From the NCBI RefSeq assembly GCF_044324785.1, contig NZ_CP172127.1: a stretch of DNA of 64,000 nt. One strand, written 5' to 3'. Below, one piece after another: positions 63,352-64,000 of this stretch. The notes under the pieces are model-generated. The model did not search any database. It saw nothing but the letters and a program-made list of their open reading frames with translations, and had not been told where the DNA came from. Source of the DNA: Escherichia coli (GTDB taxonomy: Bacteria; Pseudomonadota; Gammaproteobacteria; Enterobacterales; Enterobacteriaceae). The translations under genes were made by a program, and so were the position numbers. How positions within the stretch are numbered: the first letter of the stretch is position 1; each line of letters begins with the position of its first letter.

Positions 63352-63427
63352 TCCTCTGTAGTTCAGTCGGTAGAACGGCGGACTGTTAATCCGTATGTCA
63401 CTGGTTCGAGTCCAGTCAGAGGAGCCA
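63352..63427 (+). tRNA. asnW: tRNA-Asn (GUU), asnW-equivalent by synteny
   Basis: 76 nt TCCTCTGTAGTTCAGTCGGTAGAACGGCGGACTGTTAATCCGTATGTCACTGGTTCGAGTCCAGTCAGAGGAGCCA on the plus strand. Confidence 0.95.
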
Positions 63428-63588
63428 AATTCAAGTTTTCATGCTTATCTGTACGTCTCTATTTGTTTACGATTCAGTAAGTTAGCGTGAAAATCCTTCC
63501 CGGTGCGTATCTGGTTTTCTCTCTGTATCGGGATAATTTGGTGGTCAGATCTGGGGTCAGTTTGGTTCGATTCTGGAGTGACCCCCAA

Positions 63589-64000
63589 ATGTCTTTAAAC
63601 GATTCTAAAATCCGCAAGTTAAAACCCTCTTCCCGTCCGGTAAAACTCTCCGACTCTCACGGTCTGTATCTGCTCGTCAATCCGGGCGGTTCACGCATCT
63701 GGTATCTCAAATATCGTTTCAACGGAAAAGAATCCAGAGTCAGTCTTGGCGCATACCCGCTTGTCTCACTGGCAGAAGCCAGGCAACAGCGCGACGGTAT
63801 CCGTAAGTTACTGGCGCAGAATATCAACCCGGCGCAGCAGCGCATGGCGGAGAAAGCGGCCTGCTCCCCTGAAAAGTGCTTTAAGGCAGTGGCGCTGGCC
63901 TGGCACAAAACCAACAAAAAATGGTCGGCTGATTATGCCGCCCGTATTCTCGCCAGTATGGAAAACCATATCTTCCCGGCGATTGGTCATCTGCCAGTTG
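63589..64000 (+). CDS. int: P4-type tyrosine integrase, N-terminal ~137 aa only (runs off the window); marks the edge of a genomic island at tRNA-Asn
   Basis: ATG at 63589; translation MSLNDSKIRKLKPSSRPVKLSDSHGLYLLVNPGGSRIWYLKYRFNGKESRVSLGAYPLVSLAEARQQRDGIRKLL... is the characteristic arm-binding N-terminus of P4-like integrases; starts 160 bp after the tRNA-Asn 3' end. Confidence 0.85.
   Translation, partial: MSLNDSKIRKLKPSSRPVKLSDSHGLYLLVNPGGSRIWYLKYRFNGKESRVSLGAYPLVSLAEARQQRDGIRKLLAQNINPAQQRMAEKAACSPEKCFKAVALAWHKTNKKWSADYAARILASMENHIFPAIGHLPV

Follow-up and report, generated by a model that had tools for sequence, protein, structure and literature searches.

Two genomic islands of Escherichia coli, the colibactin (pks) island and the high-pathogenicity island (HPI), are found at asparagine tRNA genes and carry a P4-type integrase gene. 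The pks island is located at asnW (PMC8209727, PMC7545054) and has a short direct repeat of the 3' terminus of the tRNA on either side (PMC8209727). The HPI sits at asnT rather than asnW, carries the ybt/irp/fyuA genes and, in E. coli, is without its right-hand repeat (PMC8209727). Islands of the EARL (ROD21-like) family also use tRNA-Asn as their target, with an integrase gene by attL and direct repeats at their ends; their GC content lies between 35.7 and 39.2% and they encode H-NS homologues (PMC7074111). Here, we analyse the asnW locus at the right end of a 64,000-nt stretch of an E. coli genome (contig NZ_CP172127.1, assembly GCF_044324785.1), referred to below as the window, in which a P4-type integrase gene starts shortly after the tRNA and runs off the edge. 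We find that this gene opens a 10.5-kb island that carries an Rhs toxin cassette on a decayed backbone and that is distinct from all three of the island types above.

Rhs genes beside the asn tRNA cluster are already on record, because Jackson et al. (2009) list rhs 'position 7' (yeeO-cobT) and 'position 8' (yodB-yeeJ) in strain ATCC 8739 (PMC2935791 Table 3) and Archer et al. (2011) give the same region as b1976-b4497 and b1988-b1990 (PMC3032704 Table 6). The asnW position, between yeeO and yeeN, is absent from the 11 rhs loci of Jackson et al. (2009), and our literature search found no published link of asnW with Rhs.

Results

Insertion of a 10.5-kb island at the 3' end of asnW

The last tRNA-Asn of the window is the asnW copy because the gene upstream of it is yeeO, and the window order ldtA, asnV, nac, cbl, asnU, yeeO, asnW is the reverse of the K-12 map. 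The start codon of the integrase gene (int) lies at 63589 on the same strand, 161 nt past the end of the tRNA (160 in the original prediction, which had seen this pairing), and no stop codon interrupts the 137 codons between this start and the window edge (Table 1).

Beyond position 64000 we relied at first on proxy genomes and then on draft assemblies that were found through an exact match to the YeeO protein of the window, which is present in public assemblies. Within the set of 5426 complete RefSeq E. coli genomes that was searched, the best match to the last 25 kb of the window is 98.4% identical, whereas the last 5 kb match strain N3 best, at 99.8%, and the last 801 nt are 100% identical to N3. 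By this comparison, recombination has made the region a mosaic. Closer still were two draft assemblies. GCA_044683885.1 (L012, a 240-kb contig) equals window positions 51764-64000 at 12,237 of 12,237 positions, and GCA_044702345.1 (L019) is likewise free of mismatches, with 1,121 of 1,121 positions identical to the window and 10,372 of 10,372 identical to L012. From these perfect matches in the overlaps we infer that both represent the same genome as the window or clonal relatives of it. Except where the N3 proxy (L001) is named, coordinates above 64000 are window-equivalent positions read from L012 and L019, assemblies that were matched to the window only in the overlap. Over the 9,251 nt that follow position 64000 in L012, a single base differs from the N3 island, and the L012/L019 island as a whole is 99.99% identical to that of N3.

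The left boundary is formed by a 20-nt att core, CCAGTCAGAGGAGCCAAATT, which consists of the last 16 nt of the tRNA followed by AATT (attL, 63412-63431). The same 20-mer is shared by attR and by the empty attB of strain STEC719, where asnW is followed by yeeN with no DNA in between. The right flank of attR is the same as the right flank of this empty attB, and on the left side the match to empty-site genomes ends at about 63439. The core-to-core distance in L012/L019, and hence the island length, is 10,543 bp, after which come the core genes yeeN, amn and shiA. Of the island, whose GC content is 51.6%, the window contains the leftmost 569 nt (63432-64000). As judged from these alignments, the island entered the 3' end of the asnW tRNA by a clean, site-specific insertion, with a direct repeat at the far end. 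The original prediction had placed an island boundary, marked by a P4-type integrase gene, at the 3' end of this tRNA, in a flank where K-12-like strains carry core genes, and had proposed to look for a repeat of the tRNA end at the far boundary. Our data agree on each count: the integrase is of the P4 type (see below), the tRNA was rebuilt at attL, STEC719 has yeeN directly after asnW, and the 20-nt repeat lies at window-equivalent 73955.

All three tRNA-Asn copies of the window have the same sequence and are followed by AATT, and therefore each contains the 20-nt core; by sequence, the asnV and asnU copies are unoccupied alternative attachment sites. The exact YeeO allele does not predict whether asnW is occupied, as it adjoins filled and empty sites alike.

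A frameshifted integrase and a decayed second recombinase

Pfam placed Arm-DNA-bind_3 (PF13356) on residues 3-87 of the integrase fragment within the window (E 3e-25) and, on residues 98-137, the first 41 positions of Phage_int_M (PF22022), the domain order with which a P4-type integrase begins. Some strains, among them E300010 and 19KM1831, keep the whole 420-aa integrase. The intact allele of E300010 is 99.3% identical to the window fragment over 137 aa and has the arm-binding domain at residues 3-87, the central domain (PF22022) at 98-191 and the catalytic domain (PF00589) at 225-384. In L012, by comparison, a 1-nt deletion is found at gene position 435 (codon 145), window-equivalent position ~64023 and so 23 nt past the edge. 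The missing base is one C (GATTTCACTG -> GATTTACTG) in a sequence with no homopolymer run, and the resulting product of 196 aa still has the arm-binding domain but no longer the catalytic one.

The 412 nt of int inside the window carry two variants, 265A and 408A, which among the sampled alleles occur only together with the deletion at position 435. The integrase segment is present in 92 complete genomes, 49 of which match the allele with 408A and the deletion exactly, while no complete genome (0) matched a synthetic allele combining 408A with an intact frame. The occurrence of the frameshifted allele in 49 genomes from many hosts suggests long-term vertical persistence.

The island also encodes a second recombinase, of the PF12834/PF12835 type, which is intact (294 aa) in strain 64EVA and is reduced here to three fragments with internal deletions. 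Family scans of the island recognised no excisionase (AlpA or Xis type) and no replication, transfer or packaging gene, nor was a protein resembling a recombination directionality factor (RDF) recognised in it. Because int is frameshifted and the second recombinase has decayed, the island is probably fixed in the lineage of the window. A short integrase remnant without cargo had been named as the finding that would speak against an island; the integrase is indeed broken, yet a small Rhs cargo is present.

An Rhs protein with a predicted caspase-like tip

The 1393-aa Rhs protein scored 2602 bits against the NCBIfam model RHS_core (NF041261; cutoff 2000) over residues 1-1254, and Pfam recognised DUF6531, RHS repeats and RHS, giving a YD-repeat shell. 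DPIGL occurs at residue 1228 and DPLGL at residue 1250, and a C-terminal tip of 139 aa follows. The core is 59.8% GC and has ~85% DNA identity to rhsD; the tip is 37.4% GC and the gene after it 31.3%. With its core, DPxGL junction, AT-rich tip and small next gene, the sequence is that of a clade I Rhs protein (RhsA-D type). In the RhsA-D elements of K-12, too, a GC-rich core precedes a displaced tip that is rich in AT, and a small gene comes next. Here, however, the Rhs gene is the cargo of an integrase-bearing, att-bounded island, with no orphan tips downstream and no adjacent vgrG. The downstream gene encodes a 182-aa protein with Sel1 repeats, which is probably the immunity protein, given its position after rhs.

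The 139-aa tip had no sequence match in Pfam, NCBIfam, PHROGs or the PDB, and only nine sequence relatives were found in a set of 5.8 billion proteins. Their alignment revealed an invariant cysteine (Cys72) within the motif LLSCNTG and a G-HG motif that is conserved in those homologues that cover it. The AlphaFold2 model of the tip (pLDDT 94.2) places His32 after a strand at residues 26-30 and Cys72 after a strand at residues 66-70, the arrangement of the catalytic residues in clan CD cysteine peptidases, and the predicted fold is of the caspase-hemoglobinase type. The tip is thus predicted to fold like a cysteine protease of the caspase or CPD (cysteine protease domain) type, and it would be a clan CD cysteine protease acting through His32 and Cys72 (Rhs residues 1286 and 1326). 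Its placement in clan CD rests on fold and motif, structure prediction having been the sole informative search. To our knowledge, clan CD protease activity has not yet been shown for any Rhs tip.

In the AlphaFold database, the domain is the terminal one of Rhs, type VII secretion system (T7SS) and VENN-type (CdiA-type) toxins, and some of the entries are labelled DUF4347 or 'Peptidase C80'. The model places the tip in a widespread, uncharacterised class of caspase/CPD-like polymorphic-toxin domains. It differs from the CPDs of MARTX and TcdA/B and from PA0256/Tce1, to which its sequence identity is only 8-18%; at 139 aa it is much shorter than the CPDs and, unlike them, gives no indication of a binding site for inositol hexakisphosphate (InsP6). 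The Pseudomonas aeruginosa effector PA0256, a DUF4347 protein of the type VI secretion system, has been described as uncharacterised and without an obvious immunity gene (PMC8262886).

A third asn-tRNA integrase lineage

The pks island that occupies asnW in Nissle 1917, CFT073 and 536, compared here by way of Nissle 1917, resembles the present locus in its gene order (yeeO, asnW, int), in the 161-nt spacing, in orientation and in the three-domain architecture of its P4-type integrase, and its short flanking repeats of the tRNA 3' end have their counterpart here. The two integrases are nevertheless only 71% identical in protein sequence and differ in 393 of 1272 aligned nucleotide columns. There is also a base shift in the att core (GCCAAATT here, GCCAATTT in pks), and 54 kb of clb genes stand against 10.5 kb with one Rhs gene and a frameshifted int. 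The HPI integrase, a P4-type protein of 420 aa, targets the identical asn tRNA sequence and has 70% protein identity to the integrase studied here. In contrast to the HPI, with its missing right-hand repeat, the present island keeps both repeats, and no ybt genes lie between them. The suggestion that the integrase would prove to be of the HPI or pks kind did not hold, then, as it is a separate allele. In sequence, it is a third asn-tRNA integrase lineage beside those two.

The integrase allele occurs in ~92 of the 5426 complete genomes, and the segment comprising tip, Sel1 gene and attR (at least 80% coverage) in 91, so that on these counts integrase and payload occur together (92 vs 91 genomes). 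At the same coverage of at least 80%, the whole island was found in 206 genomes, and the junction from the int 3' end into the backbone, which marks the wider family, in 393. The 801-nt junction query, again at a coverage of at least 80%, retrieved 1078 genomes, only 88 of them at an identity of at least 99%; most of the 1078 junctions are presumably of the pks type at lower identity. Six genomes with a junction at least 99.3% identical were sampled, and all six carry the Rhs island.

Related islands lie at other asn tRNA copies in other strains, including ATCC 8739 (PMC3032704 Table 6, PMC2935791). In 64EVA, a sister island with the same backbone occupies asnT, beside mtfA. Its Rhs protein ends in an unrelated tip with a HELGH motif, which looks like a zinc metallopeptidase, and a 130-aa gene comes next. 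The copy of the integrase target and the toxin tip thus both vary within the family. The corresponding locus of PK12 is complex. At asnW lies a related integrase with an internal stop. Beyond it come a second recombinase that is intact (294 aa), HigA, a DUF2169 gene disrupted by an IS3, a different Rhs gene with an orphan tip, and a RelE/ParE pair; a second, intact integrase adjoins another tRNA-Asn, and nac and cbl are displaced. This arrangement suggests an inversion or a recombination between asn tRNA copies. In the sister islands, the tip described here is replaced by unrelated tips with their own small downstream genes.

Discussion

The availability of assemblies identical to the window in their overlaps allowed us to read the island to its far end. 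Where the original prediction had expected a new system, we find one Rhs gene and one Sel1-repeat gene on a decayed backbone with a frameshifted int; the HPI or pks cargo it had suggested is not there, as the 10.5 kb are followed by yeeN, amn and shiA. The decayed island carries an Rhs toxin cassette of an ordinary kind, has gene-by-gene RefSeq annotation, and is neither a virulence island nor a new system.

We are highly confident in the overall explanation of the locus as a small, decayed Rhs-toxin island at asnW. A P4-type tyrosine recombinase would have inserted the island into the 3' end of the asnW tRNA through the 20-nt core, in a recombination that would have rebuilt the tRNA and left the direct repeat at the far end, and the frameshift in int together with the decay of the second recombinase would later have fixed the island in place. 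The Rhs shell would enclose the tip and release it, and the tip, once delivered to neighbouring bacteria, would act as a clan CD cysteine protease from which the Sel1-repeat protein would protect the producer as cognate immunity. By analogy with the family, delivery probably depends on a type VI secretion system (T6SS) encoded elsewhere. The island would now serve as a chromosomal cassette for interbacterial competition and no longer as a mobile element.

Several points weigh against this explanation. Past the frameshift, an open reading frame (ORF) of 273 aa still spans the central and catalytic domains, separately from the arm-binding domain, and may provide residual integrase activity. The homologous fold in MARTX and TcdA/B is an autoprocessing domain and not the toxic part, and we infer the protease activity and target of the tip as well as the immunity role of the Sel1-repeat protein. 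The island contains neither vgrG nor hcp nor any further T6SS gene, and the Pfam PAAR model is silent on the Rhs N-terminus, though residues 5-8 read P-A-A-R. Finally, the match of L012 and L019 to the window covers the overlap only, within which there is no mismatch.

The integrase could be taken for the left end of the colibactin island, given that the pks island of Nissle 1917 lies at the same yeeO/asnW/int site with the same 161-nt spacing, that the literature places pks at asnW (PMC8209727, PMC7545054) and that ~1078 genomes have a related junction. We regard this as practically out of the question in view of the 71% integrase identity, the 393 differing columns out of 1272 and the different att core, and of the Rhs island found in all six sampled genomes with a junction of at least 99.3% identity. 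In L012 and L019, the assemblies identical to the window, there are no clb genes in the 10.5 kb before yeeN, and for these two a pks identity is ruled out. An HPI is ruled out as well, by the asnW site, the 70% integrase identity and the lack of ybt genes. Membership in the EARL family would account for the Asn-tRNA target, the P4-type integrase by attL and the direct repeats (PMC7074111), and it is only slightly less improbable than a pks island: the GC content of 51.6% is outside the EARL range of 35.7-39.2%, no RDF was recognised, and neither the island annotation nor the family scans contain an H-NS homologue, a relaxase, pilus genes or type III restriction-modification genes. We rejected it on GC and gene content (PMC7074111).

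The two remaining alternatives concern what the island does rather than which island it is. That it is still a functional mobile element, moving among asn tRNA genes, seems improbable to us. Both att cores are intact and the same 20-nt core is present in all asn tRNA copies; in 64EVA a related island occupies asnT, and in PK12 and ATCC 8739 such islands are found close to another asn copy; the 420-aa integrase is intact in E300010 and 19KM1831, and the ORF over the central and catalytic domains stays open. These observations are outweighed by the frameshift at codon 145, which parts the arm-binding from the catalytic domain, by the decay of the second recombinase, by the failure to recognise any excisionase, replication, transfer or packaging gene and by the frameshifted allele that 49 genomes from many hosts have in common. 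The tip, on the other hand, could be a self-processing or inactive domain and not a toxin, in which case the Sel1-repeat protein would not confer immunity. Its best structural matches, the CPDs of MARTX and TcdA, are autoprocessing domains, for PA0256 neither a characterised function nor an obvious immunity gene is on record (PMC8262886), and Sel1-repeat proteins have many roles. We consider this unlikely, though less so than any of the foregoing alternatives, as the tip sits directly after the DPLGL cleavage motif, the usual place of an Rhs toxin, is AT-rich like other displaced tips and is found again at the end of Rhs, T7SS and CdiA-type polymorphic toxins. Moreover, unrelated tips with small genes replace it in the sister islands, and nothing after the tip could be the toxin.

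On a practical matter, a P4-type integrase beside asnW should not be taken as a marker of the colibactin island, given that at least three integrase lineages (pks, HPI and the present one, ~70% identical to each other) use the asn tRNA sites in common, each with cargo of a very different kind. Our findings on the decayed Rhs-toxin island also mean that some E. coli clade I rhs genes are the cargo of integrase-bearing, att-bounded islands, with the same backbone carrying other tips elsewhere, which offers a concrete route for rhs genes to new loci. More speculatively, the conserved backbone, comprising int, the AT-rich site array, the EFASI RNA with the second recombinase, and the C4 RNA with the helix-turn-helix gene (see below), may be a dedicated vehicle by which clade I Rhs cassettes, their tips being interchangeable, move from strain to strain and among the asn tRNA genes, of which there are four identical ones, the tip in the present island being a clan CD protease toxin aimed at other bacteria. 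We put this forward tentatively and would not expect it to hold in full; if true, the vehicle would give a site-specific mechanism for the 'transposition' of rhs to new loci described by Jackson et al. 2009. The candidate catalytic residues of the tip have been named and are hence directly testable.

Other features of the locus

The gene content of the island was taken from the RefSeq annotation of six independent genomes. After int comes a stretch of ~1.36 kb that is AT-rich and unannotated, then, in the opposite orientation, the pseudogene of the second recombinase, and after it a 52-aa ORF, a helix-turn-helix gene with a 153-aa ORF, the 'RHS element core protein' of 1393 aa and the 182-aa protein, annotated as a TPR/Sel1 (tetratricopeptide/Sel1 repeat) protein. 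In strain W13-16, rhs is interrupted by IS1. Among the island proteins, PHROGs recognised only the integrases and the helix-turn-helix repressor, and PADLOC matched none of them to a defence system.

Table 1. Features of the asnW island, its surroundings and its sister loci. Positions above 64000 are window-equivalent.
Feature	Position	Strand	Basis or remark
tRNA-Asn (GTT), asnV position	59119-59194	-	ARAGORN; Rfam agrees
tRNA-Asn (GTT), asnU position	61528-61603	-	ARAGORN; Rfam agrees
yeeO (MATE efflux transporter), core gene	61764-63251 (window-equivalent)	+	RefSeq annotation under 100% match in N3 and other genomes
Sigma-70-like promoter of asnW tRNA (TTGACA at 63305, 17-18 nt, TAATAT)	63305-63334	+	Consensus scan, 10/12
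tRNA-Asn (GTT), asnW copy, intact	63352-63427	+	ARAGORN; Rfam tRNA, 72.6 bits
attL core, 20 nt, CCAGTCAGAGGAGCCAAATT; island begins after 63431	63412-63431	+	Same 20-mer in attL, attR and attB
Left arm of island, spacer from att core to int	63432-63588	+	Partly conserved with pks island attL spacer
P4-type integrase gene, 5' part (137 codons)	63589-64000	+	Pfam on window fragment; allele comparison; L012
Truncated integrase ORF, 196 aa	63589-64179	+	L012
AT-rich (38% GC) unannotated stretch, ~1.36 kb, between convergent recombinase genes	~64851-66213		L001 21652-23014 (N3 proxy)
EFASI RNA, leader of decayed second recombinase	~66851-66978	-	Rfam, 100.8 bits; L001 23652-23779
52-aa ORF, hypothetical	67063-67221	+	
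Helix-turn-helix gene	67712-67900	-	
153-aa ORF, hypothetical; operon with helix-turn-helix gene	67897-68358	-	
C4 antisense RNA, upstream of 153-aa ORF/helix-turn-helix operon	~68412-68500	-	Rfam, 62.2 bits; L001 25213-25301
Rhs gene	68880-73061	+	
Sel1-repeat gene	73118-73666	+	
Second att core (attR)	73955		Assemblies identical to window (L012, L019)
yeeN; amn and shiA next	74419-75135		
64EVA sister island, same backbone, at asnT beside mtfA	L008 2924-13400		
PK12 sister locus, complex	L009 13925-29488		

Between the att core and int, the left-arm spacer probably holds arm-type binding sites of the integrase and the former int promoter. The only plus-strand sigma-70-like site that the consensus scan placed upstream of int is the tRNA's own promoter, and the promoter/terminator scan found no terminator-like site that would separate int from the tRNA. 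For the pks and HPI islands, transcription from the asn tRNA promoter is reported to read through into int (PMC8209727), and by analogy it may also run from the asnW tRNA into int in the present island.

The AT-rich stretch is ~90% conserved in the sister islands at asnW and asnT. Within it lie two repeats of ~126-131 nt; each contains a long palindrome, in one case a perfect 36-mer, CACCTTCCGTGATTAACATGTTAATCACGGAAGGTG. The motif YTATCAATR is significantly clustered, with five of its nine matches in 40.8 kb falling within 363 bp (1.56 are expected in the whole locus), and the stretch looks like an array of protein-binding sites. The name EFASI stands for 'Enterobacteriaceae, Frequently Around STAXI and Integrases' (PMC12370729), and the position of the EFASI RNA directly upstream of the second recombinase is its known context (PMC12370729); Rfam found no STAXI RNA alongside it in the island. 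Beside the C4 RNA, Rfam also gave sub-threshold matches to c4-a1b1 and IsrK.

Elsewhere in the window, Rfam matched an algC RNA (14060-14109, plus strand), a JUMPstart element (24933-24971, plus strand), the his operon leader (44150-44273, minus strand) and the small RNA STnc240 (46571-46645, plus strand). JUMPstart elements are typical of the starts of polysaccharide or O-antigen operons, and all four matches are in keeping with the E. coli region of the colanic-acid, O-antigen and his genes.

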